From Escherichia coli (GTDB taxonomy: Bacteria > Pseudomonadota > Gammaproteobacteria > Enterobacterales > Enterobacteriaceae): 64,000 nt of DNA. Where the stretch lies: assembly GCF_030013595.1 (NCBI RefSeq), contig NZ_CP122768.1; one strand, 5' to 3'. This document shows positions 31,094 to 57,604 of the stretch, in pieces. The position numbers were made by a program, and so were the translations under genes. The number at the start of each line of letters is the position of its first letter. The stretch's first letter is position 1. The notes beneath the pieces are model-generated. The model saw only the letters and a list, made by a program, of their open reading frames with translations. It made no database searches and was not told the origin of the DNA.

Positions 31094-31257
31094 TTACATG
31101 TTCTTGATGATCGCATCACCAAACTCGCTACATTTCAGCAATTTAGCGCCTTCCATCAGACGTTCGAAGTCATAGGTTACGGTCTTGGCGTTGATTGCGC
31201 CTTCCATACCTTTAACAATCAGGTCTGCGGCTTCAGTCCAGCCCATATGGCGTAACA
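31094..31257 (-). pseudogene. icdC: icdC: displaced chromosomal 3' fragment of icd (last ~53 codons), left by prophage integration
   Basis: 31094-31254 aligns with the 3' end of intact icd (58633-58796) with scattered substitutions; similarity stops near 31255; preceded by the same terminator hairpin (31048-31070). Confidence 0.85.
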
Positions 31258-31767
31258 GTATATAAAAACATTAAGTTCAATTCATTGATATTTAATGATA
31301 AAAATTATTTTATTGTCTTTTTATTAGCCAAAATCAACTTTATTCAACCGTTTGATTTCATTGACGTTCGTTTTTATTTTGGGGAAAGGTTTTCTCTACC
31401 ATTTATATCCAAATTACAAGTCTACATTTTATTAACATCTCAATACATGTGAGGCCTTGCAGACCTTTGTGAGACCTTATGTGTCTCTGTTTTGTCCCAC
31501 CTTGTATTACGACTTGCATAGCCAATGAAGATAAATGTGACGACAAACGGCGCGGCAGTCTTCTTTTCCTTCATACTTTCCCCACCCAGCATGCATACCT
31601 TTATGCCATAACTGAAGTTTATGTCTGTTATGAGCGATGAGCGGAAGTTCACTACTTCATGACTAACATTGAAGTGTCCTAAGCAACGGGGAGCAGCTCA
31701 AGGAGTGTGTTAGTGCAATTACACTAACACAGCTACTAAAAATAAAAATACCAAAACTACAGTTATT

Positions 31768-32883
31768 CTATGCGCCTGGATTGGGTTCGATCATACTCAG
31801 CGTTTTTGCTATTTTCTTAATCTCATCATCATTATCCAAAAAAGAGGCGTCTTTTATTACCACAGTACGCTCTTCTTGTAATAGCTCACCTATTTTTTCT
31901 TCTATAAAATCTAAGGTTGGCATTATAATCTGGATGTCTCGAGAAAAAGTAGTTTTTGCATCTTCTATACTGTTGAATCCATTATGTATATGAGTGAATA
32001 TTCTCTTTTTAAACTGTATGTCTTCTGGATTTCCCACTAACTGACTGAAATCTCCTTTCATAACTCTTTCGCTTGTTTCAAAGAGCTGTATTGCTATCGA
32101 GTCGATTAATTCCTTTTTGGACAGAGATGCTTGTTCATAAAATTTGGTGACTAACTCTGTTGGTAACTTTCTTGAGACGACTTTAATGGACAGTCTCTGA
32201 AATAGGTAAGGTGCCACCACGCCCACACTGAAAGGGTGAATCCTCCCTGGATTTAATAATTTTATTGTGACGTTTTCAAAAACTAGCTCATTGATTTTAC
32301 TATTTATGAATTCCATTAAATACTTATCTAATGATAATGTTACCGACGCAACCGCTTCTATCACTTGTTTAAATGGCTCGCCTTTCAAGGATTTAAAAAA
32401 CTCTTTGTTATAACCAAAGAAATCCACAAAACCTAAATTTATTCGATTTTCTTCTTTAGTATTTGAAATGCGAATTTGAAGTTGTTTTAAGTCTTCATCG
32501 GTCAAGTATTTTAAACCATAGTCATCAAGCGCGTTACGTATAACTTTATCTGCAGATTCTAAGTCGATTACAGTTTTTACATTAAAAAACAATGATAACA
32601 ATGAATCATACTTATGAACTCGCAAGGTTAAATCTGTTGCATTTGATGCGGTTACATTTATACGTCTCAAAAGATCAATAACTTTACTAATTGGTAGGCT
32701 GTTTTCAAAAATTTTGAATGACTCGTATTCAGATACAACATCTTTTATATACTTACTGATAGTATGAGACTTTATTTCCACCTCAACTTCGGTTGAGTAA
32801 GAATGAATTAGTGAGTTTGTAGTTTCAGCGATGTCATTTGATACATACAACTTATATTCGAAACAATCAGGAGCGGGAAGCAA
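31768..32883 (-). CDS. Continuation reading frame of the Mrr-like gene (about 370 codons, unknown function); no independent start, probably joined by a frameshift
   Basis: Open for 371 codons in AT-rich DNA but first in-frame ATG is about 190 codons in; no SD before the TTG at 32883; overlaps upstream ORF by 76 nt in a different frame. Confidence 0.5.
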   Translation of the reverse strand: MLPAPDCFEYKLYVSNDIAETTNSLIHSYSTEVEVEIKSHTISKYIKDVVSEYESFKIFENSLPISKVIDLLRRINVTASNATDLTLRVHKYDSLLSLFFNVKTVIDLESADKVIRNALDDYGLKYLTDEDLKQLQIRISNTKEENRINLGFVDFFGYNKEFFKSLKGEPFKQVIEAVASVTLSLDKYLMEFINSKINELVFENVTIKLLNPGRIHPFSVGVVAPYLFQRLSIKVVSRKLPTELVTKFYEQASLSKKELIDSIAIQLFETSERVMKGDFSQLVGNPEDIQFKKRIFTHIHNGFNSIEDAKTTFSRDIQIIMPTLDFIEEKIGELLQEERTVVIKDASFLDNDDEIKKIAKTLSMIEPNPGA

Positions 32884-33233
32884 CTATTATCAATAATGGA
32901 AAACAATAAAAATTTAATTATTTCTCTTAATGCTTGCGGTCTAGTTATTCTACCTTGCATTTTTTTACATTGTATTAAACCACTTACAACACCGTTATGG
33001 TATAGCACGCAGTCGCGTCCTCTTTCAGAAACTCCTTGCATTAAAGATATTGAGGATATATTTTTATGCTTTCCATCTTCAATTTCGTTCTTTACTAACA
33101 AATAACATAGCAACTCAAATTCTCGATCACCTAATTCTGAAAAGGGAAGCAATCCGATACCAGAATCTATAGTCCATGGTCTATATCCTGATTGAGCCTC
33201 GATATTAATTTGTTCGTCACTGATTTTTTTCAC
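32808..33233 (-). CDS. Mrr-like PD-(D/E)xK restriction-endonuclease catalytic domain protein (N-terminal part of a probably longer gene)
   Basis: GTG start at 33233 with strong SD (AAGGAGatttaaGTG); translation ...LGDREFELLCYLLVKNEIEDGKHKNISSISLMQGVSERGRDCVLYHNGVVSGLIQCKKMQGRITRPQALREII fits the Mrr_cat pattern (FExL..LL, GxD, QxK, later R). Confidence 0.6.
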   Translation of the reverse strand: MKKISDEQINIEAQSGYRPWTIDSGIGLLPFSELGDREFELLCYLLVKNEIEDGKHKNISSISLMQGVSERGRDCVLYHNGVVSGLIQCKKMQGRITRPQALREIIKFLLFSIIDNSCFPLLIVSNISCMYQMTSLKLQTH

Positions 33234-33548
33234 TTAAATCTCCTTCTAATCTTATTGACCTACTCCCTACATTGTAACAGGGGATGATGATAAGGTGTAT
33301 CTTTCGAGCTATAAGCACGATAAATAAGTGATTAAAAATGACTCTTTAAACTATTTTAATTTAAAAAATTAATTGTTAGTTCTAATTATGGTATGAGGGC
33401 ATTTTCGGCATAGTTCTAACCATATACTTTGGTAAAAATGACTGTTACGGAACAGACCATAGTAATGCCTGCTATTGGCACGGAGCGGGCCGCCTGAGCG
33501 CCGTGGGGTCTGCAAACGGTAAGCATACCGATAACTATACGCTTGGCC

Positions 33549-33968
33549 TTAGTAACTTTTGCTCCCCTCAATAAATCCGCCATCTTTTATCGGACTGCAA
33601 TGTCCTTCTTCATCAATCAGTTGCTCGTCTTTCAGGTAGGTATATCGATAGATAATTGAGCCATTATCCATCTCACCATTGGTTCGTTTCATTAGGAGAG
33701 TAAAATGTAACGGGCTGTCCCTATATCGAGCTATTCCATGAATATTGGCAAGTACCTCATATTGACGCTCAGGTGATAACCCTTTAAATACATCGAGATA
33801 TCCATGGAATGTTCCATAGAGTGAAGAAGTGTAGATCAGTCGCTGCTCTGGACCAGTAACTTTAAGAGTAATTTGTTCACCCGTATTACAGGTTAGCTTG
33901 GCGGGAAATGTCTCAGCCTGAGCAGAAGAAATAGTCAAGCTTAAAATTATCAGGTAGCAATATTTCAT
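33549..33968 (-). CDS. Secreted (signal-peptide) protein of unknown function, prophage cargo
   Basis: ATG at 33968; MKYCYLIILSLTISSAQA|ETFPAKLTCNTGEQITLKV... (AxA signal peptidase site); AT-rich. Confidence 0.6.
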   Translation of the reverse strand: MKYCYLIILSLTISSAQAETFPAKLTCNTGEQITLKVTGPEQRLIYTSSLYGTFHGYLDVFKGLSPERQYEVLANIHGIARYRDSPLHFTLLMKRTNGEMDNGSIIYRYTYLKDEQLIDEEGHCSPIKDGGFIEGSKSY

Positions 33969-34252
33969 GTGATTAGAATGTCCAAAACTAACATGTATAC
34001 TCGGGATTCTATAACTAGTTGGATGTAGACCCAAGATGTATTGGACTATTCTTCGGTTGTAGTTGGTCAAATCATATATTTTATGTCAGCAATGTCTACT
34101 TTTGGCACATAGCAGACCAGAGACACTGGCGTAAAGCCATGGAGGATCGGTGGGAGGAGGTAAAAATCCTCTCATGCAAAAAATACGCAAAATCGATAAC
34201 AGTTGGAAATCATTCAATACTCGCACTATCGGAAGTTCACCAGCCAGTCGTA

Positions 34253-34290
34253 GCACGTTCTTGCATATGACGTGGCTACGGGTTTCGAGA
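34253..34290. repeat. Direct repeat R1: diverged copy of the pinE 3' end plus terminator hairpin
   Basis: gtAGCACGtTCTTGCATAtGACGTGgCTACGGgTTTC aligns with 35270-35305 (gcAGCACGaTCTTGCATAcGACGTGCTACGGTTTC). Confidence 0.7.
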
Positions 34291-34376
34291 CCGACCCGAT
34301 CATCAAACGAAACATAAAATTAGCTCACATTATGAGGAAAGGTATCTTTTTGCGCTATGTAAATTCAAAGGGTTAG

Positions 34377-35246
<870 letters not shown>

Positions 35247-35269
35247 GTCTTTAAGTGATAAGCATAAAC

Positions 35270-35305
35270 CGCAGCACGATCTTGCATACGACGTGCTACG
35301 GTTTC
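35270..35305. repeat. Direct repeat R2: pinE 3' end/terminator hairpin
   Basis: Hairpin GCAGCACG-13nt-CGTGCTAC immediately after pinE stop codon; partner of R1. Confidence 0.7.
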
Positions 35306-35858
35306 ATTTATCTCCGACCGGAAACTTCTTATACAAAGTCGATACACCCACATCGTAGATAATCGCCACCTTCTGGCGAGGAGTTCCTGCTGCAATTAAT
35401 CTTCCGGCTTGTGCCCATTGTTCTGGTGTAAGTTTGGGACGACGTCCACCAATTCGTCCCTGTGCGCGAGCAGCTTCCAGTCCAGCTTTTGTTCGTTCAA
35501 CAATCAGTTCACGCTCCATTTCAGCCAGGGCACCCATCACATGAAAGAAAAAGCGTCCCATTGGTGTGCTGGTATCAATTGAATCCGTCAGACTATGAAA
35601 GTTGATGCCTCGTTCGCGCAACTCCTCCACCAACACGACAAGATGCCGCATACTACGCCCCAGCCGATCCAGCTTCCAGACAACCAGAGTGTCACCTGCC
35701 GATAATGTCCTGAGCAGTTTTTTCAGTCCCGGCCTTTCGGACTTTGTGCCGCTTATCTTGTCTTCAAAAATCAGCTCGCATCCTGCACAGTTCAGCGCAT
35801 TACGTTGTAGATCTGTGTTCTGGTCATTTGTTGATACGCGTACATAGCCAATAAGCAT
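35304..35858 (-). CDS. pinE: Serine DNA invertase Pin (Gin/Hin/Cin family)
   Basis: MLIGYVRVSTNDQNTDLQRNALNCAGCELIFEDKISGTKSERPGLKKLLRTLSAGDTLVVWKLDRLGRSMRHLV..., 184 aa, catalytic Ser in VRVSTNDQ; ORF trimmed to ATG 35858. Confidence 0.88.
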   Translation of the reverse strand: MLIGYVRVSTNDQNTDLQRNALNCAGCELIFEDKISGTKSERPGLKKLLRTLSAGDTLVVWKLDRLGRSMRHLVVLVEELRERGINFHSLTDSIDTSTPMGRFFFHVMGALAEMERELIVERTKAGLEAARAQGRIGGRRPKLTPEQWAQAGRLIAAGTPRQKVAIIYDVGVSTLYKKFPVGDK

Positions 35859-35884
35859 GGTAGATCCCCCTGACAAAAGCAGGA

Positions 35885-36283
35885 ATGATGCCATTTGCTC
35901 GTTATTTCTGCATTTTCATAAACGTTGGTTTGGGAGAAGCGGCAAAGAGGAATGTGGGGACAGGAGAAAATCAGGTACCGGATATGAACAGCTTTGGTAA
36001 CTCATTGACCGCCAATGGATACCAGAAATTACCTGGGGGGATGATTATTCAATGGGGGAGTTTTTCTGTCTCACCAACCGGAGGAAGTGTTGGAACAGTT
36101 GATATAACATTACCTGTAGCTTTCCCTGCTGCTTGTCGTTCGGTAAACGCTCTTATTTCAACTAATGATCCTTCTGCCCGTTCTGTGGGCTTTGATATTG
36201 GAAGTACCAACAGAACTAAAATCAGATTTACTTACACTTCTGCTACAACAAATTCAATTTACTGGATGGCTGTGGGGTATTAA
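35885..36283 (+). CDS. Alternative tail-fibre C-terminal (variable) segment, currently in unfused orientation
   Basis: Reading frame open from 35864 without conserved fibre N-terminus; followed 3 nt later by a tail-fibre-assembly gene. Confidence 0.5.
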   Translation: MMPFARYFCIFINVGLGEAAKRNVGTGENQVPDMNSFGNSLTANGYQKLPGGMIIQWGSFSVSPTGGSVGTVDITLPVAFPAACRSVNALISTNDPSARSVGFDIGSTNRTKIRFTYTSATTNSIYWMAVGY

Positions 36284-36285
36284 CT

Positions 36286-36717
36286 ATGGAAAAGACATAT
36301 TATTTTAATCCCTCTGATTCGGGATTTTATATTTCACCAGATAGCCAAACCATTCCTGAGAACGCTACGAAAATAAACTTTACTATTTATTCTGAGTTCG
36401 CAGGAGTTGCATGGCCTGATGGTAAAATACTTGGTTCAGATAAAAATGGTTTTCCAGCATGGCAGGATGCGCCACCACTTACCAGCGAAGAATTAATCTC
36501 AATCGCTGAATCAAATAAACAGCGATTAGTTAATCAGGCCAACGAATACATGAACAGTAAACAATGGCCTGGTAAAGCGGCGATTGGTCGTCTGAAAGGT
36601 GAGGAACTGGCGCAATATAATTTGTGGCTGGATTATCTGGACGCACTGGAACTGGTCGATACTTCCAGTGCGCCAGATATTGAATGGCCTACTCCTCCGG
36701 CAGTTCAGGCCAGATGA
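36286..36717 (+). CDS. Tail fibre assembly protein (alternative orientation)
   Basis: 143-aa ORF ending ...[28 protein letters not shown]; C-terminus similar to minus-strand Tfa (...[25 protein letters not shown]). Confidence 0.65.
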   Translation: MEKTYYFNPSDSGFYISPDSQTIPENATKINFTIYSEFAGVAWPDGKILGSDKNGFPAWQDAPPLTSEELISIAESNKQRLVNQANEYMNSKQWPGKAAIGRLKGEELAQYNLWLDYLDALELVDTSSAPDIEWPTPPAVQAR

Positions 36718-37294
36718 CATCCGGCGCGGTACTGGTATCTGTTGCCGTCACCGCGTCAATGTAATCCAGCACAGTGTTAAGTCGGGTGGTCTCTGCCTGC
36801 ATCAGCTTCCGCCCGGCCTGCAATTTCAGTTGAATCAGACTAATGGAAGCCATTGCAGTATCAATCAGTGACTGACGTTGTGCTTCTGCCGCGTCTACTG
36901 CGGCGCTATGCTGTGTCTCAGTATCCGTTACCCATTTCTCACCATCCCATTTATCGTATGGCGTTAACGGGGCGATAGTGGTTGTTTTTTCGGGGTAATC
37001 ACCCGGAGTTGTGATTTCTTTGGCGTCTCCCGTTTCGGTGTTATAGACGATTTCACCGCGATGGTCTGGTACATATTCCCATGAGTTAAAATCTGCAGAG
37101 CGGCAGATTGCATAACCAGCTTTGTAGGTGCCTGGAGCATCTAAACAGGAATATGCCGGAATGCCGACACCAACAGCAAGATATTCAGTTGAAGCTGAAA
37201 TATACTCCCGACTCATGACGTCAAAGTTATAAACAGTAATTTCTCCTGCCATAGTGGCAATTAATTCACTGTTTAATTCTGCGTTATTCATCAT
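36689..37294 (-). CDS. Tail fibre assembly protein
   Basis: 201-aa ORF immediately downstream of tail fibre gene (4-nt overlap); conserved Tfa C-terminal motif. Confidence 0.7.
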
Positions 37295-38076
37295 GCGGCC
37301 CTCACAATATAATTAAAGGCGATGTTACGTGGACGATTTTCATTTGCTGTTGGAACAACATTTGCCGCCGAGAAGTGAACATCTTGTCGGATTTTTCGGT
37401 CATTAGCGTATGTCATAGACACATTGATGTTATTCCGGACTGAGGTACCTCCGTAAAAAGCTCCACTCACACTTTGAACATCGACAATTGCATTAATTTC
37501 GCTGTTTACGCGCAACTGACCAAAACCGCCAGTAATGTTTCGAATAGCATCTCCTTGCGATGAAAGCAGAGTTCGCCCACTATCCACACCACGTTCATCA
37601 TCCCAGCCACGAATAAACTCACCGCGTAAATCAGGCAATTTATTTGTCGGGTAAGACTTTGCCAGTTCCGGGTATTCTTCAGCAGAAAAAGCCGCACCAT
37701 TGCATTTCAGCCAGCCTGTTGGTGGAGTGGCTGAAGGCCACGGAACAGGCACACCAACGGGTAATGCCGAACCTTCTCCCAAACCAAGGTTTTCGAGAGC
37801 TGTTTTCACCGTGCCATCCGATTTGATATCGCCAAACGGATTCTTGCGGCTTAACAGCAGCGCACGAAGCGCGGTAAGCAGCTGGTCATGCCGCCCCTTC
37901 TCCAGGCTGGCACCGGATGCCTCCACAACGCTGCAAAGCTCCTCCTGCAACATGTCAAAGTAGTCATCATCCAGATCGGTGGCAGGCGTGCCGGTCTGGG
38001 GGTTACCACGGGTAAAACCGTTCTTACCCGCGCCGAACTTATCCTTCTGCGCGGTTTTCGTGTCTATACGATGCAT
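37291..38076 (-). CDS. Tail fibre protein (constant N-terminus fused to current variable C-terminus)
   Basis: 261-aa [50 protein letters not shown]... ending ...[11 protein letters not shown]. Confidence 0.7.
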
Positions 38077-38079
38077 GGA

Positions 38080-38664
38080 TTACTCCGGATATTTAAAAAT
38101 CACATAGGTATGCGACGGGCAGAGTTTGTTAAGAACACACTCGACAACGGTGTCCCCCCAGAAGCGCAGCGCGGAATCACAGGGATCGCCACATGTCATC
38201 CAGGTGGTGTTGGTGGCGGCTGGCATGTTGACCTGCCAGTAATACCGCCATTCAGGCGCATTCACCGCGTCAGTACAGGCCGATGAGCAGGTGAACGTGC
38301 TTTTGTCGTATCGCGTGATGTTGGCATCCAGTCTGCCCAGGGCAGCAAGCTGTGCAAGATAAAAATTCTCGTTGATGCCGCCCGCCAGGTTAACCTTCGC
38401 ATCCAGCCGTTGCTGACGCTGGCGAAGGGTCTGTGTCCCTGTAGGAATACATTCATCCGGCAGGCCGCACAGACGCTCCCAGCGATTTATCAGTTCGGTG
38501 GTGGTGCGCGGATCCAGCTCCCGCATCAGGGCATCCGCACGCTGATGAACGCGGGTTAATGACGGTGCCGCACCGGCAATCGCCGGATCGCTGGCTGACC
38601 ACGCCGGACCGGGCGGCAACAGTGCTGACAACAGACGGATGTAATCATCGTTTGTCACGTCCAT
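38080..38664 (-). CDS. Tail/baseplate protein (Mu gp48-like)
   Basis: 194-aa ORF between baseplate J gene and tail fibre gene; gene order matches Mu tail module. Confidence 0.6.
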
Positions 38665-39713
38665 GAAATCGCCCCCAGAACCGCCAGTTCATTTTTTGCA
38701 ATGGTGATATTGTCCGCCGGTGCAAGCAACTGATGGCTGTATTCCCCGTTCGCACCGGAAATCGCTTCACTGATACGTGACACCTTCAGTTCTCCCTGCG
38801 GATAACCATCACGCAGCAGGAACGAACGCAACTCCGCGGTGATGGCAGCCCGTATTTCCGGTGTGTCCGGCGTAACACGGATATGAAAATCCACCGTATG
38901 TGCCACCGGCCTGAACACATACAAATCAGAGCCTGCCACCGGGGCCAGTGGCCCGATATGTTGTCTTGCCGCCGTTTCCGTTGATTCTTCCGGAATGGGA
39001 TTAATCAGGTCACTGCTGGCAATCATCACACCGACAGTCCCCGTTCCCATCCAGTGTCGGTATGTCCATGCGCGGGTAATGCCAGGCACTTCTTTAGCCC
39101 AGACGACATAGTCCCCGTCAGCCCCGCCCTGCGGCGTCCAGTAATACCGCTCAATGACGCGGGCGCGCCACGTTTCCAGCTCTTCAGTATCAAATCCGCC
39201 TGTCAGGGTGTCAGCCACACCGGAAGACGGCAGACCATTCACCGGCGTGACCAGGATTAATGCCGTACCGTCGTCAGCGTTACCGACCGCACCTGCACTT
39301 GAGCAGGCGATCGGCACGCGCAGGACACCACCGGAGCTGATTGCATCGTCAGTTGTCGTGTACTGCACCAGGTCATCGCGCTGAATAACACTCCCGGCAG
39401 TCACCTTCAGGCCATCGCTGACACCTTCCCAGCGCATATACCCGCTGGCAACCGTGGCTCCCTTGCGCGGACACCGTTTCATCGCAGCATGTCGCGCCAA
39501 CCAGGACTCATCGCACAGGTCAGGCAGCATATTCATTGCCAGATAATCGATGTAACCGTAGACCGTATGCAGCGCCGCCGCATACACCTTTGCCCGCACG
39601 TCTTCATCCATGCGCCGGAGCGTGTCGCTGACGTCCAGCCTGGCGAATAAATCGTTACGGAGCATACTGATATTTTCTGCCAGCGTCGGGCGCTGAAATT
39701 CACTGTCCGCCAT
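38655..39713 (-). CDS. Baseplate J-like protein (Mu gp47-like)
   Basis: 352-aa ORF; size and position in Mu-like order. Confidence 0.65.
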
Positions 39714-40128
39714 GCGTTATCGCACTCCACAGATCATCAAAAGAAATCATTACTGGTCCATCACGACGCCAGAGGGTGATACTGTTACCCAGCTCATTAA
39801 TCCCGGTGCGGCGGATATCCAGATCAATACGGGACACCACGCCGTCATCAGTCATCCATTGCAGGCATTCGCGGATATATCCCCTTACCGTCTGCACCAG
39901 CTGATTGGTCAGTTTGCTGCGCTGAAGCAGCCACAGTCGGGAGCCGTAACGGTCATTCTGTACCGCAGGCCAGGTATCCCCCCACCATCCCATCGGGACG
40001 TCGGCATTGTCATCAGGCTCCGCCCGCCGCCAGGTGAACAGGGAAATCACCACGGCGCGGGTCAGCGGATCCAGCGGTGCGCTGGCGCAGGTGCGTTTAC
40101 CGTTCACCGTCAGCCACAGTTCCATCAT
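39700..40128 (-). CDS. Baseplate protein (Mu gp46 / gp25-like)
   Basis: 142-aa ORF; position between V-like and J-like genes. Confidence 0.55.
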   Translation of the reverse strand: MMELWLTVNGKRTCASAPLDPLTRAVVISLFTWRRAEPDDNADVPMGWWGDTWPAVQNDRYGSRLWLLQRSKLTNQLVQTVRGYIRECLQWMTDDGVVSRIDLDIRRTGINELGNSITLWRRDGPVMISFDDLWSAITHGGQ

Positions 40129-40673
40129 GCCTCCATCGCTTTATCAGGTTTGTCGGTGTTACTGCCCTGACCGTTCTCTCTGTGACGATGCCCGTTATAG
40201 GCAAGCCGCATCGCTGACATGGTGGTGCCGCCGGAGTCGCACAGGTCTTTCACTTGTCCGGTCACTTCCAGATCCATTTCAAAACGTGCTTCAGTTGCAT
40301 TGCGAAACGTGATCGTTTTCCCTGCACCGTCCACCACGATCCCCTCCCGGGTCAGCGTCACAGACTGCCCCTGATCGTCATAGACAGCCACCTCACCCGT
40401 CTGCAGCCCTTTCAGGCGGTAGCGCCGGTCCGACACCGTAACAACCACCGCATGAGAACGGTCGCCATCCGGAAACAACACCACCGCTTCCGCACCGCTG
40501 TTTGCCCTTGCGGTAAAACCGTAGGGTTCAAGATGTTCAACCCCGGCTTTGGGTTCACCGGCAATCAGGGACACATCCACGGTCTGACATTTCGTGGCGG
40601 CACTGATGCTTTTCACCACGGCCCGCCCAATCAGGCCGAGAAGTTGTCGCTGCATGGCTTCAATCGTCCTCAT
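40125..40673 (-). CDS. Baseplate assembly protein V-like (Mu gp45-like spike)
   Basis: 182-aa ORF; position. Confidence 0.6.
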   Translation of the reverse strand: MRTIEAMQRQLLGLIGRAVVKSISAATKCQTVDVSLIAGEPKAGVEHLEPYGFTARANSGAEAVVLFPDGDRSHAVVVTVSDRRYRLKGLQTGEVAVYDDQGQSVTLTREGIVVDGAGKTITFRNATEARFEMDLEVTGQVKDLCDSGGTTMSAMRLAYNGHRHRENGQGSNTDKPDKAMEA

Positions 40674-41752
40674 CAGAACGGGTCCTCCTGTACTCTGGCT
40701 TTTTTCTTTTTCCGCGCGCCGGGGGCTTCGGGTCCAGGCAGATAAGCATCAGGCGGGCCGACACGGATTTCCGTCAGGGTGCCGTTCTGGTCCTGAGTAA
40801 ACGTGACTTCCGAGACAAGCAGTTCGGTATTGTCGAAACCACAGACCGGATCGAAGACAATCACCCGCTGGTTGGGCTGCCACAGCGTACCGTTACCCTG
40901 TCGCCAGCCCTGCACCACATAGGTGGTTTCATCCGTCCGCGCCGCCCGTTGCCGGGCTTCAAAGTCAGCACGCGCAATACAGCCTGCCCCCGTAGCCTGC
41001 CCTGTCTGCCTGATATACATCGGACGGTAACGGGCAATAAATGCGTCTTCTGTGCGGGCCCGCAGCGCGGTGGTGGTGGCCTCACCGAAATCATCGTCGT
41101 TTCCGGCACGCTGCCCCGCCACCTGGTAAACAGAAAACCGCTCCCGGATACTCTTCTCCGTATCGCAGGAAAGGATGTTTTCCCCGAGTACCAGCGCGGT
41201 ATGTGCCCGCGTTGAGCCAATACCGCCAATCACCAGCCTGCCGTGCGAGTCGTCGTAAGCCAGCGCCTGCTGCTGACCGAGTATTTTGTTGATCACCTCG
41301 ATCACCGTTTCACCGTGATCAGGCTGGACATCAGGAATAACACCCGACGGCGCACCGCTGTTCACCACCTCAATGCCGAAAGGCGCAGCAAGCGCCTGCG
41401 CAATCTGTACCAGCGATCGTCCGTTAAACTGTGTCGGTTCGGCTGCACAGTCAATCAGGTCAGCGGTCAGACTACGTCCGGCAATACCGGTGCTGACCGA
41501 ACGGGCATCGTAACGAACGGGCGTCGCCTCCACCCAGCCAGTGATCACCAGCTCATCACCAATCAGCACTTCCACTTTTGAACCGTTTTTAATGCGCGGC
41601 TGAAGCGTGGTGATACCCTCATCTCCCGGCCACTGGCGGGTGATCTCCACACTGAAATCCCGCGCCAGTCGTTCAACACCGGCACCGATGCGCACCGATG
41701 TCCAGCCATTCCACTCCCGGCCATTTACCCGTAGCGTGACGTTATCGTTCAT
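40673..41752 (-). CDS. Baseplate hub / tail protein (Mu gp44-like)
   Basis: 359-aa ORF; position following DNA circulation gene. Confidence 0.6.
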   Translation of the reverse strand: MNDNVTLRVNGREWNGWTSVRIGAGVERLARDFSVEITRQWPGDEGITTLQPRIKNGSKVEVLIGDELVITGWVEATPVRYDARSVSTGIAGRSLTADLIDCAAEPTQFNGRSLVQIAQALAAPFGIEVVNSGAPSGVIPDVQPDHGETVIEVINKILGQQQALAYDDSHGRLVIGGIGSTRAHTALVLGENILSCDTEKSIRERFSVYQVAGQRAGNDDDFGEATTTALRARTEDAFIARYRPMYIRQTGQATGAGCIARADFEARQRAARTDETTYVVQGWRQGNGTLWQPNQRVIVFDPVCGFDNTELLVSEVTFTQDQNGTLTEIRVGPPDAYLPGPEAPGARKKKKARVQEDPF

Positions 41753-43077
41753 TGCACTGGCACCTTCAGAGGGATCACCGGCACAAAGCCGGGATGCGTA
41801 ATGGCATTACGCCGGATAATGTCCCCGTCACGCGCCGCGTTATCAAACCAGGTCGCCGCCAGCACCAGCGCGGGTAAAACCTCATCCGGCGTGCGCTGAA
41901 TGATCCGTGCAGACTGTTCAAGGCGCGTGTTGATATCCGCATTCAGATCTGCTTTCACCCGGCGCAGCGCCAGAAACAGCGCATCACTGGTTGTACGGGA
42001 CAACTCCTTATCAATTGCCGTATTCAGTGTGTCGCGAATGTCAGTCAGTTCTTCCCACGTTGGCAGGTCAACCGTGCTTTTCACCGCCGGTGCATTGTTC
42101 AGTGCCGGATGCGTGACGGAAGGCCAGCCAGTGCTCTGCGCGGGTGTTGTTGCCTGCCCCACTGCGGCATTCTGCATCACCGCGGAAGTTGTTGGCGCAG
42201 GCAATCGGGTGACGGCATACGCCGCTTCGCTGATTGCGGTCGTACGAAGGATGCTGGCAACCACGTTACGCTGCTGTGTCGCCGTGGCGGTGGTTTTACT
42301 GTCCGTTTTCCAGACGCCGCGCGGTTGCAGATCGCTGCCAAGGCTGACACCGGAAAGCGTTTTGATCATGGTGACCAGGTCGCTGGCGTTACCATAAAGG
42401 CGTTTCCCGGTACGCCACATTTTCTGCACCTGCTCAACGAAATTTTTGCCTGACGATGGTGGCGGCAGAAGTACCGAGATATCCCCCTGCAACAGCCTGG
42501 CAGCATCCGATACGGCAGAATCCACCACTTTCATCGCATCAGAAACATACCCAAGCATTGTGCTGGCATTACCGACGACGTCGTTCTGCACAAAATCCGC
42601 CACGCCATCGATACTGAAACCGCTGAAGCTGTCACTGATGCAGTTATCCAGTGCAGAACAGGATGACATCAGCGTCTGCGCCGTCGCCGCACCTGATGTG
42701 GGGTAAGAGAGTTCTCCTGCTTCGACAAACTTCAGGTCAAAGCGGACAATACGCCCTTCACTTTTCGATGTGCTGACCCGAACTTCCCCGTCAACACAGA
42801 CTTTCAGCTCACCGTATGTCGGATGGACAAGCGTGCCGGGACCGGGTTTATTCAGCGCGTCAATCAGGCGATCGCGCTGGTCAAAGCAGTCATCTCCCAC
42901 CACATAAGCCGTGATGGACGGGCGAAAAGTGATTTTCCCCAGGTCTTCGGTATAGGGTTTGTCGCGGTTCGGGTATTCATGTGTTTCCACACGGCGACCG
43001 GTTCCCGCACTTTCTTCTTCAACCTTAAACGGCACACCTCGAAATGACGCATCCTGAAGCCTGTCTTTCCACGTCAT
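41749..43077 (-). CDS. DNA circulation protein (Mu gp43-like)
   Basis: ATG at 43077 with SD GGAG 5 nt upstream; MTWKDRLQDASFRGVPFKVEEESAGTGRRVETHEYPNRDKPYTEDLG... (conserved N-terminal motif of this family). Confidence 0.7.
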   Translation of the reverse strand: MTWKDRLQDASFRGVPFKVEEESAGTGRRVETHEYPNRDKPYTEDLGKITFRPSITAYVVGDDCFDQRDRLIDALNKPGPGTLVHPTYGELKVCVDGEVRVSTSKSEGRIVRFDLKFVEAGELSYPTSGAATAQTLMSSCSALDNCISDSFSGFSIDGVADFVQNDVVGNASTMLGYVSDAMKVVDSAVSDAARLLQGDISVLLPPPSSGKNFVEQVQKMWRTGKRLYGNASDLVTMIKTLSGVSLGSDLQPRGVWKTDSKTTATATQQRNVVASILRTTAISEAAYAVTRLPAPTTSAVMQNAAVGQATTPAQSTGWPSVTHPALNNAPAVKSTVDLPTWEELTDIRDTLNTAIDKELSRTTSDALFLALRRVKADLNADINTRLEQSARIIQRTPDEVLPALVLAATWFDNAARDGDIIRRNAITHPGFVPVIPLKVPVQ

Positions 43078-43087
43078 ATACACTCCG

Positions 43088-43118
43088 AAAATAAAAAAGC
43101 CACCTATTAGAAGGTGGC
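43088..43118 (-). terminator. Intrinsic terminator of the moron gene, located inside the tail operon
   Basis: Minus strand: GCCACCTattagAAGGTGGC followed by ttttttatttt. Confidence 0.7.
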
Positions 43119-43138
43119 CTTGTAATGAATTTTATTAA

Positions 43139-53129: not shown

Positions 53130-53311
53130 TATTTACCTCCGCCGACAGACGACTGTGTACGGTCGAGATATCGCGCCACCAGCCACGACCAGAACAGGCA
53201 CAACGCCCCGGCAACAACAAACCCCGCCGGGGGATAAATCAGCCAGGCACCATACGCCAGCAAAAGCGCCCCCAGCACGCCCACCAGAGGCGCGAGAATC
53301 AGCATGATCAT
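53129..53311 (-). CDS. Small two-helix membrane protein between terminase and portal genes
   Basis: 60-aa [52 protein letters not shown]..., SD GAGGT, stop overlaps portal start (TAGTG). Confidence 0.6.
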
Positions 53312-53322
53312 AATTACCTCAG

Positions 53323-55056
53323 TTAAAGCGAGCGGATCCCATAGGACTCAATGTGGTCAGACAACGTGTCTTCTTTCTCGTACAGCATGGCTCTGCCAAC
53401 CGCCATAATCAGCGCAACTGCACCATCGATTTTGTTTTCCGCCTGCTCTTTGACGGGCTTCACCACATCATCGTTACCCGGAATGGTTTTGCCGACCACG
53501 TTGCCGATACACCAGGTCATGATGGGATTGCCATCATGATGAAAGCGCCCCGATTCAATTGCCGCTTCCAGCTCTTTCATCGGGTCGGACATGTTGGTGT
53601 AGTTCTGAATGATAGTGATGGGGTTCAGGTCTTCATCAGCCAGGTCATGTGACAGCCCGGTCGCCCCGAAGGGGTCGATGGGTGACTCACTGACCGGGCT
53701 GATTTTGTTCGCCGCTTTGGCCTCCTCGAGGATGTAGCGATAATCCACCTCCGCACCATCGGTAACGGTCAGAACGCCCATTACCACCCATTTCTGAAAG
53801 CGTTCGGCTGTCCGTCGATCTTCATTTTTCTCGACACTGTACACCGTGTCATACGGTACCCAGAAACGCGGGGCCACACTGTAGTAATGCGTTTTACCGT
53901 CAATCTCGCGGGTATAAAGTCGCGCCATGCTGTTCATATCCAGCTTACGCGCCAGGTCAAAGGCCAGAATGCACGGCTGCCCCTCGAACTGCTCAAGGGT
54001 CAGTGATTTATCCTCGCAGCTCTGCCAGCTCACCAGGTTGAAATACGCCGAACGCGCCGACACCCAGATATTGAGGTGCTTTGTTTTAAAGACGTTTGCC
54101 AGACGGGCGTTATTTTTCGCACGCTGCTGCTGACTTAACAAAAATTCGCGATAAACCGACACGCCAATATTCGGGTTAGCTTTTTCCAGCACCTGCGGGT
54201 CGGTCCAGTCATCGCCTTCGTCAACGGTATAGATGATCCCGAACAGTTCATCGTTGGGTACCGACCCGTTGAGCATCTCGATAACTTCCCGCCGCTTGTC
54301 GTAGCACGGCCCCTCAATGTTGTACCCGGCAGTAGTAATGGCCCACATCAGTGGCTGACGTCGCGCCCCCATCCCGGTAAGCATCGTGGTGTAAAGCGCA
54401 TCGGTGGCGTGCTCGTGATATTCATCCACCACCGCACAGTGGGGTGATGATCCATCACCGGGGTTACCGATCAGCGGTTCAAACCGCGCGCCATCCTCCG
54501 GACGGTTCATGTTTGAGGCGTTAACCTCAATCCCGAACGCTTCCGTCAGCATGGGCGTGCGTTTACACATCAGTCGCGCCGGGCGAAAGACTTCCCACGC
54601 CTGTTTCTCTGTCGTGGCACCGGAATACACTTCCGCGCCAAACTCGTTATCACAGGCAAAACAATACAGGGCAACACCGGCAGAGATTGCTGATTTGCCG
54701 TTCTTACGGGGGATTTCGGTATACACCTCCCGGAAGCGGCGCAACCGGGTGCCTTTATTGACCCAGCCAAACGCACAGCAGATCACAAAGAGCTGCCACG
54801 GCTCCAGCGTGATGGGCATCCTCTTGAATGCCCACTCACCCTTGGTGTGCGGCAACAGCTGAATAAATTTGGCGGCCCGTTCAGCCAGGTCCTTGTCGAA
54901 GCGGTAACGAAACGACTTACTTTTTTCCGCCATCAGGTCATCAAGATGGCGCTGGCAGGCCTGAATCACAAACTGGCAGGCCACAATCTTTCCGCGAACG
55001 ACATCCCGGGCATACTGATTGGCAGCATTTACGTTGGGGTAAGATTTCCGGCTCAT
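53323..55056 (-). CDS. Terminase large subunit
   Basis: 577-aa ORF with Walker A-like IPRKNGKS and Walker B-like VVDEYHEH, C-terminal nuclease region. Confidence 0.85.
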
Positions 55057-55556
55057 GATTCGATGATTTTCAGAAACGGGTTAGTAGCTTTCTTCTGCCC
55101 CGCCAGGCCAATCAGACGCTGGCGGCTGCTGGGGTCGAGTCCGAGCATTGCCCCCGTGCTGCTCATCTCGGACTCCTGTTCTTTTTTGGCGGTCAGCTCA
55201 GGATTTTTGACCATACCGCCCATTGCACCGGTGATGGTGTTGCCCTGTCTGGCAATATTTTTCACGGCACGTCGCCAGAACTCATAGGCCACACACCACC
55301 GCTCAAGCACCGCGAGGTCAGTCACGCACAGCAGGCCCTGACCGCAAAGTTCTTTAGTTGTCAGTTGCCACATGATCGTGGCGAGAGGGAGATCTTCTTC
55401 AGCGAACCACTCCGGTGGCTCAACACCTTTGATGGGCGTAAAAACAGGTTCATCTTTATTCAGGGCTCGCTTGCCGGGGTTTCCGGCCAGCGCCTTGCGC
55501 GCCGTTGGCTTGGGGCGACGCCCGGAACGCCCCGCCGTTCCAGCCATATGCGGCAC
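55053..55556 (-). CDS. Terminase small subunit (P27 family)
   Basis: 167-aa [40 protein letters not shown]...; 4-nt overlap with large subunit gene. Confidence 0.75.
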
Positions 55557-55672
55557 TCCTGGTTAAATTTCATTTTTCGCGGGTATAAAAAAACGATGGG
55601 GCGGGCAGTCCGGAAGACGTCAGGTCACAGAGATTTGACCCGCCCCTCCCCTCAGACAGTTGAGAATTATTA

Positions 55673-56023
55673 TCACTTTAGCCGTTCACGGGCCGTCTTC
55701 GCCTTATGGCACGGCCAGCACAGGCTCTGCAGATTACTGTCTGCATCGGTGCCGCCATGCGCTTTAGGGATGATGTGGTCAACGGTTTTCGCCTCACGCA
55801 CCACACCAGCACGCAGACATAACTGACACAGGCCTTTGTCACGCTTCAATATGCGCGCGCGGATACTGTCCCACTTCGAACCGTAGCCGCGCTGATGACG
55901 GGATTGCCCCGGCTTGTATTGTTTCCAGCCTTCGTTTTTGTGGCTTTCGCAGTAGCCTGACGGGTCTGTAGTGGTATTACGGCAGCCGCGAACGCGGCAG
56001 GCTTTTGGGATTCGTGATGGCAT
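55673..56023 (-). CDS. HNH endonuclease (terminase-associated)
   Basis: ATG 56023 with SD GGAG; MPSRIPKACRVRGCRNTTT...CQLCLRAGVVREAKTVDHIIPKAHGGTDADSNLQSLCWPCHKAKT. Confidence 0.8.
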   Translation of the reverse strand: MPSRIPKACRVRGCRNTTTDPSGYCESHKNEGWKQYKPGQSRHQRGYGSKWDSIRARILKRDKGLCQLCLRAGVVREAKTVDHIIPKAHGGTDADSNLQSLCWPCHKAKTARERLK

Positions 56024-56246
56024 ATGTACTCCAATGAAGAAGCCACCGACATAGCCTCCTCCATTCATCGTGAAACTATTTTCATCTACGCAGTCATGAA
56101 TTCTTTGTAGAGTTGTGATCAATACAACTCACTAATGGAGAGGCTTGTCCAACACGTTGGACAAGTTTCCTGTTTGATTTACTGGACACTATAGAAGGAC
56201 AGAATGCCTTCCTCACTCGAATAACATTAATTAAGGAGGTTCAACA

Positions 56247-57575
56247 CTGATGAATCCCCTAATGATTTTGGTAAAAATCATTAAGTTAAGGTGGATACAC
56301 ATCTTGTCATATGATCAAATGGTTTCGCGAAAAATCAATAATCAGACAACAAGATGTGCGAACTCGATATTTTACACGACTCTCTTTACCAATTCTGCCC
56401 CGAATTACACTTAAAACGACTCAACAGCTTAACGTTGGCTTGCCACGCATTACTTGACTGTAAAACTCTCACTCTTACCGAACTTGGCCGTAACCTGCCA
56501 ACCAAAGCGAGAACAAAACATAACATCAAACGAATCGACCGATTGTTAGGTAATCGTCACCTCCACAAAGAGCGACTCGCTGTATACCGTTGGCATGCTA
56601 GCTTTATCTGTTCGGGCAATACGATGCCCATTGTACTTGTTGACTGGTCTGATATTCGTGAGCAAAAACGACTTATGGTATTGCGAGCTTCAGTCGCACT
56701 ACACGGTCGTTCTGTTACTCTTTATGAGAAAGCGTTCCCGCTTTCAGAGCAATGTTCAAAGAAAGCTCATGACCAATTTCTAGCCGACCTTGCGAGCATT
56801 CTACCGAGTAACACCACACCGCTCATTGTCAGTGATGCTGGCTTTAAAGTGCCATGGTATAAATCCGTTGAGAAGCTGGGTTGGTACTGGTTAAGTCGAG
56901 TAAGAGGAAAAGTACAATATGCAGACCTAGGAGCGGAAAACTGGAAACCTATCAGCAACTTACATGATATGTCATCTAGTCACTCAAAGACTTTAGGCTA
57001 TAAGAGGCTGACTAAAAGCAATCCAATCTCATGCCAAATTCTATTGTATAAATCTCGCTCTAAAGGCCGAAAAAATCAGCGCTCGACACGGACTCATTGT
57101 CACCACCCGTCACCTAAAATCTACTCAGCGTCGGCAAAGGAGCCATGGGTTCTAGCAACTAACTTACCTGTTGAAATTCGAACACCCAAACAACTTGTTA
57201 ATATCTATTCGAAGCGAATGCAGATTGAAGAAACCTTCCGAGACTTGAAAAGTCCTGCCTACGGACTAGGCCTACGCCATAGCCGAACGAGCAGCTCAGA
57301 GCGTTTTGATATCATGCTGCTAATCGCCCTGATGCTTCAACTAACATGTTGGCTTGCGGGCGTTCATGCTCAGAAACAAGGTTGGGACAAGCACTTCCAG
57401 GCTAACACAGTCAGAAATCGAAACGTACTCTCAACAGTTCGCTTAGGCATGGAAGTTTTGCGGCATTCTGGCTACACAATAACAAGGGAAGACTTACTCG
57501 TGGCTGCAACCCTACTAGCTCAAAATTTATTCACACATGGTTACGCTTTGGGGAAATTATGAGGGGATCTCTCAG
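56247..57575 (+). mobile_element. IS10 (1329 bp, complete), no flanking 9-bp target duplication
   Basis: Outside end CTGATGAATCCCCTAATGATTTTGGTAAAAATCATTAAG at 56247, inside end ...TTATGAGGGGATCTCTCAG at 57575; flanks ggttcaaca / tattaagcg differ. Confidence 0.9.
56354..57562 (+). CDS. IS10 transposase
   Basis: 402-aa ORF MCELDILHDSLYQFCPELHLKRLNSLTLACHALLDCKTLTLTELGRNLPTKARTKHNIKRIDRLLGNRHLHKE... recognised as IS10 Tnp. Confidence 0.92.
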   Translation: MCELDILHDSLYQFCPELHLKRLNSLTLACHALLDCKTLTLTELGRNLPTKARTKHNIKRIDRLLGNRHLHKERLAVYRWHASFICSGNTMPIVLVDWSDIREQKRLMVLRASVALHGRSVTLYEKAFPLSEQCSKKAHDQFLADLASILPSNTTPLIVSDAGFKVPWYKSVEKLGWYWLSRVRGKVQYADLGAENWKPISNLHDMSSSHSKTLGYKRLTKSNPISCQILLYKSRSKGRKNQRSTRTHCHHPSPKIYSASAKEPWVLATNLPVEIRTPKQLVNIYSKRMQIEETFRDLKSPAYGLGLRHSRTSSSERFDIMLLIALMLQLTCWLAGVHAQKQGWDKHFQANTVRNRNVLSTVRLGMEVLRHSGYTITREDLLVAATLLAQNLFTHGYALGKL

Positions 57576-57604
57576 TATTAAGCGTCAATGAGCGTCTGGA
57601 AAGA

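Follow-up and report, generated by a model that had tools for sequence, protein, structure and literature searches.

A Pin-invertible P segment with two tail-fibre tips in an e14-family prophage of Escherichia coli

Results

Two fibre tips and their chaperones converge beside an invertase gene

The 64-kb stretch of E. coli DNA that we have analysed (the window) carries an e14-family P segment, in which 1.86 kb of DNA are flipped and the tip of a tail fibre is exchanged. The features of the locus are as follows:

35304..35858 (stop codon counted), minus strand: pinE, serine DNA invertase of 184 aa, intact
35775..35837: candidate Fis-dependent recombinational enhancer at the 5' end of pin, proposed from the sequence
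35885-36283, plus strand: 132-aa ORF enclosing the silent gp53-like cassette, analogue of the K-12 'StfE2'
35913..35938: pin-proximal 26-bp crossover site (pix), central dinucleotide 35925-35926
35925..37787: invertible (P) segment, 1863 bp from core dinucleotide to core dinucleotide
35939..36283, plus strand: silent alternative fibre C-terminus, gp53-like, 114 codons and stop (Pfam, PHROG)
36286..36717, plus strand: tfa, 143 aa, chaperone of the silent gp53-like cassette (PHROG 188)
36689..37294, minus strand: tfa, 201 aa, TfaE-like, chaperone of the collar-type cassette in current use (PHROG 105)
37291-38076, minus strand: complete fibre gene, 261 aa (Pfam Collar)
37291..37773 (stop counted), minus strand: variable fibre C-terminus now fused, residues 102-261, tail-collar type
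37774..37799: distal 26-bp crossover site (pix), within the fibre gene, identical in K-12 e14
37800..38076, minus strand: constant fibre N-terminus, residues 1-93 here

A preliminary description of this DNA had pinE followed by a fibre C-terminus and tfa on the plus strand, facing a tfa and a fibre on the minus strand; this layout is present, and its ORFs have PHROG and Pfam support. RefSeq already annotates the pinE, tail fibre and tfa genes. The complete fibre gene starts 4 nt past the stop codon of ymfQ, a baseplate gene, and the G+C content is 56% in the constant part of the fibre versus 43-48% in the invertible segment. The collar-type tip matches Pfam PF07484 (Collar; E 5e-15, residues 108-155), and the 201-aa tfa product matches PHROG 105 (E 5e-95). 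On the plus strand, the fibre C-terminus as it stands is promoterless and adjoins pinE; its gp53-like domain matches Pfam PF21882 (Gp53-like_C; E 5e-18, obtained on the predicted fusion) and PHROG tail fibre families, and the 132-aa ORF consists of an 18-aa leader followed by this domain. The 143-aa tfa product matches PHROG 188, tail fibre assembly protein (E 2e-52), and Pfam Caudo_TAP is recorded for its counterpart in a 99.98%-identical locus (L009). The two convergent tfa genes share 29 bp at the 3' end of the 201-aa tfa. NCBIfam gave no match for any fibre or tfa product, and for Pin only serine-recombinase models below threshold; the protein assignments rest on PHROGs, Pfam and PDB.

Two hix/gix-like crossover sites bound the segment

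Alignment to the hix/gix consensus fixed two inverted, hix/gix-like sites of 26 bp, the pin-proximal pix at 35913-35938 (TTTTCATAAACGTTGGTTTGGGAGAA) and the distal pix at 37774-37799 (TTCTCCCAAACCAAGGTTTTCGAGAG). These are the sole matches in the 64 kb to the degenerate consensus (3 mismatches or fewer), with 0.04 expected from the shuffle control and at least two matches in 0 of 100 shuffles. Among the short inverted repeats of the region, this pair is also the best one (20 nt with 95% complementarity); its inner half-sites are perfect reverse complements of each other, and TT and AA form the central dinucleotides. Compared by hand with Mu gix, the pix sites match at 18 of 26 positions, including AAACC-NN-GGTTT. 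The pin-proximal sequence is the same in K-12 e14, in all the related E. coli loci examined and in one Salmonella P2-like phage, and the e14 inverted repeats of Kirigo et al. 2025 are contained in pix, with one flanking base differing beside the pin-proximal site (PMC12529663). The 64-kb scan found no further crossover sites within 3 mismatches for a p15B Min-like multi-cassette shufflon.

The preliminary description, which marked the crossover positions as unresolved, had pointed to motifs at 35870-35883 (CTGACAAAAGCAGG) and 37519-37532 (ACCAAAACCGCCAG). These agree at 6 of 14 positions as direct repeats and at 5 of 14 as inverted repeats, which is chance level, and they miss the pix sites by distances of about 45 and about 255 bp; we have rejected them.

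The distal pix is itself coding sequence (..LENLGLGE..), with its central dinucleotide, 37786-37787, in the codon for Leu97. Because the inner half-site is common to both states, the fibre sequence does not change up to residue 101, whichever tip is joined.

The element exists in both orientations

It had been proposed that inversion swaps the C-terminus joined to the constant fibre N-terminus, and this holds both in silico and in nature. Inversion at the core dinucleotides (35925-37787, 1863 bp) keeps the frame and regenerates both sites, and the inverted state has an in-frame 215-aa fibre ending 2 nt ahead of the 143-aa tfa. The predicted 400-nt inverted junction is found at 100% identity in the complete genomes of E. 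coli A17 and FHI_NMBU_10, and among the called genes of a public collection the exact 215-aa fusion occurs in 449 blocks, and 105 blocks have the exact 261-aa product.

A search for both orientations was likewise successful at the level of whole loci: L009 is in the present orientation at 99.98% identity, and L024 and L029 are collinear with the inverted window at 99.93-99.96% over 6801 nt. A sister element was compared in the clonal pig isolates HCP5S3_I2 and LCP30S3_I5 (loci L003 and L004): the sole difference at the locus is an exact flip of the homologous 1860-bp segment, which is the exact reverse complement between the core dinucleotides, with identical flanks. This element exists in both orientations across public assemblies, and loci at least 99.9% identical in both states over 6.8 kb imply very recent flips. 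At the homologous K-12 locus, both genotypes occur together in clonal cultures (PMC4272514); the K-12 P segment is inverted by PinE, PinQ and PinR, and pinE pinQ mutants are stuck in one orientation (PMC12529663).

In the L030 and L032 assemblies, Pin adjoins non-phage genes, resembling possible Pin-mediated large rearrangements; the L032 junction has a run of N, and L030 has none in the stretch examined.

Pin is intact and carries a candidate enhancer in its gene

The integrity of pinE, raised as a point to check in the preliminary description, is borne out: the gene is full length and keeps its catalytic and Fis-contact residues. A 196-aa ORF reaching 35894 encloses the annotated 184-aa protein, which is 97.8% identical to K-12 PinE and matches PHROG 125 ('DNA invertase', E 3e-97) and, over residues 1-181, the Gin structures 3UJ3 and 4M6F (E 1e-92); Pfam Resolvase and HTH_7 are on record for an identical product. 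The catalytic residues Ser9 (in YVRVST), Arg7, Asp64, Arg65 and Arg68 are present, together with the invertase-specific basic residues of helix B (Lys46, Lys47, Arg50) and the Fis-contact residues Gln150, Arg153 and Leu154. The numbering is one below that of Hin, where the Fis/enhancer contacts are Lys47, Lys/Arg48, Lys/Arg51, Gln151, Arg154 and Leu155 (PMC3798978). One residue is unusual: Pin has His at position 88 (R88H), where all eight other invertases compared (six distinct sequences) have Arg, among them K-12 PinE, four other e14-type Pins, Mu Gin and one P2-like invertase.

At the 5' end of pin there are two G-N13-C 15-mers, at nt 22-36 (35823-35837) and nt 70-84 (35775-35789), the first identical to that of Mu gin and the second differing from it at 2 of 15 positions. 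From centre to centre, they are separated by 48 bp, which is the spacing rule for enhancer Fis sites. Synonymous-site conservation, at 0.57 over this candidate enhancer versus a gene average of 0.49, is not clearly raised. A position inside the invertase gene is that described for invertase enhancers by Kahmann 1985 and Johnson & Simon 1985, as cited in PMC3798978.

A promoter/terminator consensus scan of 35200-38800 detected no sigma-70-like promoter for pin, the sites being no commoner than in shuffled sequence, and tblastn found no second invertase in the 64-kb window. A Pin paralogue elsewhere in the genome could catalyse inversion, as in K-12 (PMC12529663).

The switch is carried by a defective prophage at icd

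The e14-family prophage sits at icd (58633-59883; NF005425, 859 bits), with an icd' fragment at 31094-31246, and the switch lies at its pin-proximal end, in the same order as in K-12 e14. The tape-measure gene has a nonsense codon, the early and lysis regions are absent, and the early-region loss adjoins an IS4-family element; with these lesions, the prophage is unable to form virions on its own. A PD-T4-3 defence gene flanks the switch, adjoining pin, and the same position is occupied in related loci by McrA or GmrSD, which are known restriction/defence enzymes, and in others by a RelA_SpoT-domain gene.

Discussion

The locus is very probably a P-segment inversion system belonging to an e14-family prophage that has integrated at icd. 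In K-12 e14, this system comprises the P segment and PinE, with stfP-tfaP facing tfaE-stfE-pinE (Plasterk & van de Putte 1985 and Mehta et al. 2004, as cited in PMC4272514; Kirigo et al. 2025, PMC12529663). Both elements share the icd site with its duplicated icd' 3' end, the gene order and identical 26-bp sites, and their products are close in Pin (97.8%), YmfQ (96%) and the constant part of the fibre (97%, StfP residues 1-105). In spite of these similarities, they differ in several respects: (i) the segment is 1797 bp in K-12 (PMC12529663) and 1863 bp core-to-core here, although counting conventions may differ, and its orientation is opposite to that of the K-12 reference. (ii) The tips have diverged, the collar-type one being 60% identical to StfE and the gp53-like one 32% identical to the StfP C-terminus. 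(iii) The 201-aa tfa product is 86% identical to TfaE, and the 143-aa one 68% identical to TfaP over the C-terminal 78 aa. (iv) Pin is adjoined by mcrA in K-12 and by PD-T4-3 here. (v) K-12 e14 has lost most of its structural genes, whereas the prophage studied here keeps the whole head and tail module and has lost the early region.

A similar module is found in P2-like phages (Peduovirus) such as KC618326 (Escherichia phage P2, O157:H43 T22) and OQ383618 (Salmonella phage MET_P1_103_31), which have an invertase, a silent C-terminus, a tfa, a convergent tfa and a fibre, and share 86-88% DNA identity across about 55% of the query. Their Tfa proteins are 69-86% identical to those described here (85-86% for the 201-aa Tfa) and their fibre tips 54-62%, and MET_P1_103_31 has the same pin-proximal site sequence. 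In contrast to e14, the constant part of their fibre is a long one of 445-499 aa, with no relation to the e14 N-terminus of roughly 100 aa, and the module lies within the P2-type tail gene cluster.

The likeness to the G segment of phage Mu (Gin; S/U versus S'/U') is one of plan: homologues of the baseplate proteins gp47 and gp48, then constant part, site, Sv-U, convergent U'-S'v, site and invertase, with Pin matching the Gin structures as given above. As in a Mu G-type switch, a constant N-terminus is alternately joined to Collar (261 aa) or Gp53-like_C (215 aa), with chaperones of PHROG 105 and PHROG 188. The C segment of P1, with Cin, follows the same logic and layout. The Mu segment is, however, larger (about 3 kb versus 1.86 kb), its fibre longer (about 500 aa versus 215 or 261 aa), and the core dinucleotide of gix is GA instead of AA. 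No BLASTP match to Mu S, U, S' or U' was obtained with the fibre and Tfa proteins, so the kinship with Mu is one of recombinase, sites and architecture only. We take the AA core to be shared with Salmonella Hin/hix. With that system the locus also has in common the invertase subclass and the 26-bp sites; the Fis-bound enhancer of Hin lies within the invertase gene (PMC3798978), as the candidate enhancer does here. Hin flips a promoter controlling flagellin genes, while the switch described here flips coding sequence. The Mu G segment can be inverted by PinE (PMC12529663).

Starting from what is observed directly (the sites, the conservation of frame, both natural states of the element and the integrity of Pin), the switch would operate as follows. 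Pin dimers would bind the two inverted 26-bp sites, 35913-35938 and 37774-37799, which, by analogy with Hin and Gin, would meet at a Fis-bound enhancer, located within pin at its 5' end. If the chemistry is that of the family, Pin would cut both strands at the central AA/TT with a 2-bp stagger, half of the tetramer would turn 180 degrees and the ends would be religated, leaving 1863 bp flipped. With the distal site at fibre codons 93-101, each flip exchanges all of the fibre beyond residue 101: at present, the constant N-terminus carries a 160-residue tail-collar-type tip, followed by the TfaE-like chaperone, and in the other state a 114-residue gp53-like tip, followed by the 143-aa chaperone. 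From what is known of the family, the late operon, 3' of the baseplate genes, would include just the one cassette fused to the constant part, and a clonal population would thereby come to hold two receptor-binding specificities.

The core reading of the preliminary description, a Pin-invertible segment that exchanges a fibre C-terminus together with its own chaperone, is thus supported, and its observation as a whole is partly confirmed. Host-range variation as in Mu G, which it also invoked, stands as the design function of the module. Since the prophage is defective, host-range switching is not necessarily the present function, and as this prophage yields no virions by itself, a host-range benefit is not currently realisable.

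What the switch may do at present for the host is addressed by another reading, which concerns current selective function rather than the inversion mechanism and is compatible with the P-segment switch. The module might have been domesticated as a phase-variable anti-phage or surface function, in which one or more inversion products, the 132-aa ORF (35885-36283, StfE2 analogue) and the fused fibre (StfP2 analogue) being the candidates, protect the host by keeping other phages from adsorbing. In K-12, StfE2 is produced once the e14 P segment has been inverted; it prevents T2 from adsorbing and gives protection from several further phages (PMC12529663). The state of the window corresponds to the 'inverted' one of K-12, the leader of the 132-aa ORF (MMPFARYFCIFINVGLGE) is conserved with that of K-12 (MPFACYFFIFINVGLGE), the prophage is defective, and the switch has PD-T4-3 beside it, where related loci have McrA or GmrSD. 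On the other side, the gp53-like domain is just 32% identical to K-12 StfP/StfE2, so the K-12 phenotype is not transferable, neither a promoter nor a convincing ribosome-binding site was found for the 132-aa ORF, and the K-12 evidence for protection comes largely from overproduction and docking models (PMC12529663). We regard domestication as unlikely. It is rather doubtful, too, that the host keeps the switch as a phase-variable defence in which the gp53-like protein and/or the collar-type fusion would mask receptors, alongside PD-T4-3, with cassette diversity arising from selection by attacking phages; this defence idea is already published for K-12 e14 (PMC12529663), and the new part would be its extension to divergent cassettes only.

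It is very improbable that the P-segment switch is a fossil which no longer flips here, with Pin inactivated by R88H or pin silent, and with the orientation differences left by older events or by invertases acting in trans. The substitution of an Arg found in all eight of the other invertases compared (six distinct sequences), the failure of the consensus scan of 35200-38800 to detect a pin promoter and the decay of the surrounding prophage would fit such a history. However, the exact H88 allele adjoins both orientations, loci in the two states are at least 99.9% identical over 6.8 kb, and both sites are intact and identical to the functional K-12 sites. Salmonella Hin, moreover, presumably has His naturally at the equivalent residue.

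That homologous recombination by RecA, and not Pin, does the flipping can practically be dismissed: the segment is bounded by an inverted repeat, but one of only 20 nt, below the length that RecA uses efficiently, and coinciding exactly with 26-bp hix/gix-type sites with an AAACC-NN-GGTTT core, beside an intact invertase. The locking of K-12 pinE pinQ mutants in one orientation argues likewise against it (PMC12529663).

Inversion of the e14 P segment by Pin was already known in the 1980s, and experimental work returned to it in 2014 and 2025. The switch described here is real, looks switchable and is ordinary of its kind, and it is carried by a crippled prophage. With its sites placed at the level of the base, the locus can be annotated as encoding two fibre isoforms, of 261 aa and 215 aa, and not one fibre and a 'gp53-like domain protein'. 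The presence of both orientations at 99.9% identity or more in public assemblies gives rise to apparent structural variation and to breaks in assemblies. Within this family, receptor-binding cassettes have been exchanged with P2-like phages, while the recombinase and its sites have remained unchanged.

Layout of the switch and its crossover sites

The e14-type prophage at icd carries a serine invertase gene (pin) next to two facing cassettes of tail-fibre and tail-fibre-assembly (tfa) genes, as read from the ORF listing and directly from 34.5–39.5 kb:

Genes of the switch (coordinates in the window, strand, content)
35304–35858, minus strand: serine-recombinase gene pinE, 184 aa in its annotated form
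35885–36283, plus strand: ORF with a fibre-like C-terminus (Pfam Gp53-like_C)
36286–36717, plus strand: tail-fibre-assembly gene, 143 aa (PHROG tail fibre assembly)
36689–37294, minus strand: tail-fibre-assembly gene, 201 aa (PHROG tail fibre assembly)
37291–38076, minus strand: fibre gene, 261 aa (Pfam Collar)
38080–38664: ymfQ, a Mu gp48-like baseplate gene, its stop codon 4 nt before the fibre gene start

An in-frame ATG upstream of the annotated pin start extends that ORF to 35894, and the convergent tfa genes overlap by 29 bp at the 3' end of the 201-aa gene. Family searches agree with the ORF calls: the pin product matches PHROG 125 'DNA invertase' (E 3e-97), the two assembly proteins match PHROGs 188 and 105 (tail fibre assembly), both fibre parts match several tail-fibre PHROGs, and Pfam finds Collar in the expressed fibre and Gp53-like_C in the alternative C-terminus. 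Thus the layout proposed in the preliminary description, with pinE followed by a plus-strand fibre C-terminus and tfa facing a minus-strand tfa and fibre, is real. Its crossover sites did not stand: the motifs at 35870–35883 and 37519–37532 share only 6 of 14 bases when read as direct repeats and 5 of 14 when read as inverted ones, and are therefore ruled out.

An inverted-repeat search returned a 20-nt pair, 95% complementary, at 35920–35939 and 37773–37792. By a second route, a degenerate hix/gix consensus (≤3 mismatches) scanned over the 64-kb window gave exactly two matches, at 35913–35938 and 37774–37799; shuffling predicts 0.04, and no shuffle contained two. Written in the same sense, the pin-proximal site is TTCTCCCAAACC-AA-CGTTTATGAAAA and the distal one TTCTCCCAAACC-AA-GGTTTTCGAGAG, their inward-facing half-sites being perfect reverse complements and their central dinucleotides matching. 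Both 26-bp sites recur unchanged in K-12 e14 and contain the inverted repeats of the e14 inversion sites of Kirigo et al. (PMC12529663), with one flanking base differing beside the pin-proximal site, while Mu gix (TTCCTGTAAACCGAGGTTTTGGATAA) shares 18 of 26 positions with them in a comparison by hand.

Two states, both present in public genomes

The distal site falls within fibre codons 93–101 (..LENLGLGE..), with its core in codon Leu97. In-silico inversion of 35925–37787 (1863 bp) regenerates both sites and carries the reading frame of the constant N-terminus on into the plus-strand cassette; the predicted 215-aa fibre stops 2 nt short of the 143-aa tfa. Two states follow from this, with fibre residues 1–101 constant in both: the tip is at present of collar type, 160 residues long and accompanied by a TfaE-like chaperone, and in the other state gp53-like, 114 residues long and paired with the 143-aa chaperone. 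G+C content is 56% in the constant part, similar to the remaining tail module, and 43–48% in the invertible segment, which fits horizontal exchange of the cassette.

We searched public genomes for both states. The predicted 400-nt inverted junction is matched at 100% identity by two complete E. coli genomes (A17 and FHI_NMBU_10) and at 97–99.8% by seven more, and the present junction has a full-length match in 511 genomes. In a protein-position collection 449 blocks contain the exact 215-aa product as a called gene, all with the inverted gene order, and 105 contain the exact 261-aa product. Whole loci tell the same: GCA_020300745.1 aligns collinearly to the window in its native orientation (99.98% over 6010 nt), whereas GCA_030347985.1 and GCA_030346565.1 each form one collinear block with the in-silico inverted window (99.93% and 99.96% over 6801 nt) and align to the native one in three pieces, the middle 1873 nt reversed. 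In two pig isolates from one study (chromosomes of 5,270,553 and 5,270,552 bp, with the same IS3 insertion in ymfQ) the sole difference at the locus is that the 1860 bp from one core dinucleotide to the other are exactly reverse-complemented, the flanks of about 3.3 kb and 5.2 kb being identical. Essentially the same element is thus present in both orientations across assemblies, and the proposal that inversion swaps the variable C-terminus on a constant fibre N-terminus is supported, both by the in-frame product and by these genomes. At the homologous K-12 locus both genotypes are present together in clonal cultures (PMC4272514); that segment is inverted by each of PinE, PinQ and PinR, and a pinE pinQ double mutant is stuck in one orientation (PMC12529663).

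The invertase and its candidate enhancer

The pin gene, whose integrity the preliminary description had left to be checked, is full length, its product being 97.8% identical to K-12 PinE. Residues 1–181 align with the Gin crystal structures (E 1e-92), and Pin keeps the nucleophile Ser9 with Arg7, Arg42, Asp64, Arg65 and Arg68. It also keeps Lys46, Lys47 and Arg50, and Gln150, Arg153 and Leu154, a residue set (Pin numbering) specific to Fis/enhancer-dependent invertases (PMC3798978). One substitution is unusual: codon 88 (35595–35597) specifies His in place of the Arg found in K-12 PinE, four other e14-type Pins, Mu Gin and one P2-like invertase. The exact His88 allele occurs in 169 collection blocks and adjoins both orientations. 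Since this is so, and since Salmonella Hin has His at the equivalent residue, we take the window's Pin to be probably active.

A candidate enhancer inside pin, recognised by homology, consists of two G-N13-C 15-mers at 35823–35837 and 35775–35789 (pin nt 22–36 and 70–84), their centres separated by 48 bp; Mu gin has an identical counterpart of the first, and its counterpart of the second differs at 2 of 15 positions. No pin promoter was detected, nor was a second invertase found across the window. In two related loci with the same fibre alleles (L010, 6221–6412; L022, 6216–6422) pin is cut to 63–68 aa, with other genes taking its place downstream (GmrSD in L010), and these switch copies would depend on trans-acting invertases or be locked.

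A defective prophage with variable cargo

The element lies between icd and a duplicated icd' 3' end, the e14 attachment site:

Boundaries, recombination genes and cargo (coordinates in the window, strand, content)
31094–31246: duplicated icd' 3' end, one prophage boundary
31768–32883, minus strand: ORF, 371 aa, overlapping the next
32808–33233, minus strand: ORF, 141 aa, with a PD-(D/E)xK-like motif (GRDCVL...IQCKK) seen by eye
33549–34070, minus strand: ORF, 173 aa, also in the low-G+C stretch 31768–34070
34470–35246, plus strand: GIY-YIG (LEM-3-like) gene adjoining pin, PADLOC PD-T4-3 anti-phage family (E 2e-140)
56354–57562, plus strand: IS4-family transposase gene (NF033591, 404 bits)
57605–58519: integrase gene, 304 aa, apparently N-terminally truncated
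58633–59883: icd, the other boundary

The stretch 38000–56023 is 97.3% identical to the head/tail module of SfI/SfII/SfV-type myophages and Escherichia phage vB_EcoM-689R6, so the whole morphogenesis module is kept here, unlike in K-12 e14. The prophage is nevertheless defective. A single in-frame stop (..ARQKLGV*LDFTDG.., Gln in the 97%-identical vB_EcoM-689R6) splits the tape-measure gene (43761–45593, minus strand) into two ORFs (255 and 339 aa), and the prophage is therefore probably unable to build tails. Its entire early region is missing, and with it all regulatory, replication and lysis genes; the IS4-family gene sits between the HNH/small-terminase genes and the integrase gene (stretch 55673–58519), and the loss is presumably an IS-associated deletion. 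The integrase gene encodes 304 aa, against 375 aa for K-12 IntE.

An extra 176-aa ORF (43139–43669, minus strand; PHROG 5485, function not known) separates the tape-measure gene from the DNA-circulation gene; vB_EcoM-689R6 lacks it, the alignment being interrupted at 43105–43766, and so it looks like a moron insertion. The 'partial genome' of that induced phage (ON470584.1, 1–2309) runs from the invertase and mcrA directly to a 171-aa fibre gene. It lacks the invertible segment and has pin and the tail genes on opposite strands, probably because the assembly broke or collapsed at the segment.

The cargo region (31250–35300) has 37.7% G+C. Its 371-, 141- and 173-aa ORFs have no significant match in NCBIfam or PADLOC, and the overlapping 371- and 141-aa ORFs none in PHROGs; the former has two marginal WYL matches only (E 0.0023). 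These two could represent a single frameshifted gene or an uncharacterised pair of defence genes. The PD-T4-3-like gene occupies the position that mcrA holds between pin and icd' in K-12 e14, and related loci carry a McrA-HNH, GmrSD or RelA_SpoT-domain gene at or near it, which suggests a hot spot of defence cargo at the pin-distal end of e14-type prophages.

Relation to known systems and function

The system is the P segment and Pin of e14, and the switch, whose preliminary interpretation is supported overall, is already known as a system: (i) K-12 has it at the same chromosomal site and in the same gene order, with the same 26-bp sites and constant parts. (ii) The exchanged parts differ: K-12 StfE is 60% identical to the collar-type tip and StfP 32% to the gp53-like tip, while TfaE is 86% identical to its window counterpart and TfaP 68%, over the C-terminal part only. 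(iii) The K-12 reference has the opposite orientation, the window being in the 'StfP2/StfE2' state of Kirigo et al. (PMC12529663). (iv) Invertase-bearing P2-like phages have cassettes in common with the window (DNA identity 86–93%, Tfa up to 86%), and a Salmonella P2-like phage has the same pin-proximal site. (v) Kinship with Mu is limited to recombinase, sites, baseplate neighbours and architecture, and BLASTP of the window's fibres and chaperones against Mu S, U, S' and U' gave no similarity.

Might the switch persist since its inversion products, such as an StfE2 analogue, block adsorption of other phages? In K-12 such products, chiefly StfE2, do so for T2 and other phages (PMC12529663), and an analogous 132-aa ORF is present here (35885–36283), but the gp53-like domains of this ORF and of its K-12 counterpart share only 32% identity, and we consider this explanation, the main alternative for the persistence of the switch, improbable. 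By analogy with these systems, the module appears to be built to alternate the receptor-binding tips of a contractile-tailed phage, a benefit that, in a prophage unable to make virions, would be attainable only with help from another phage.
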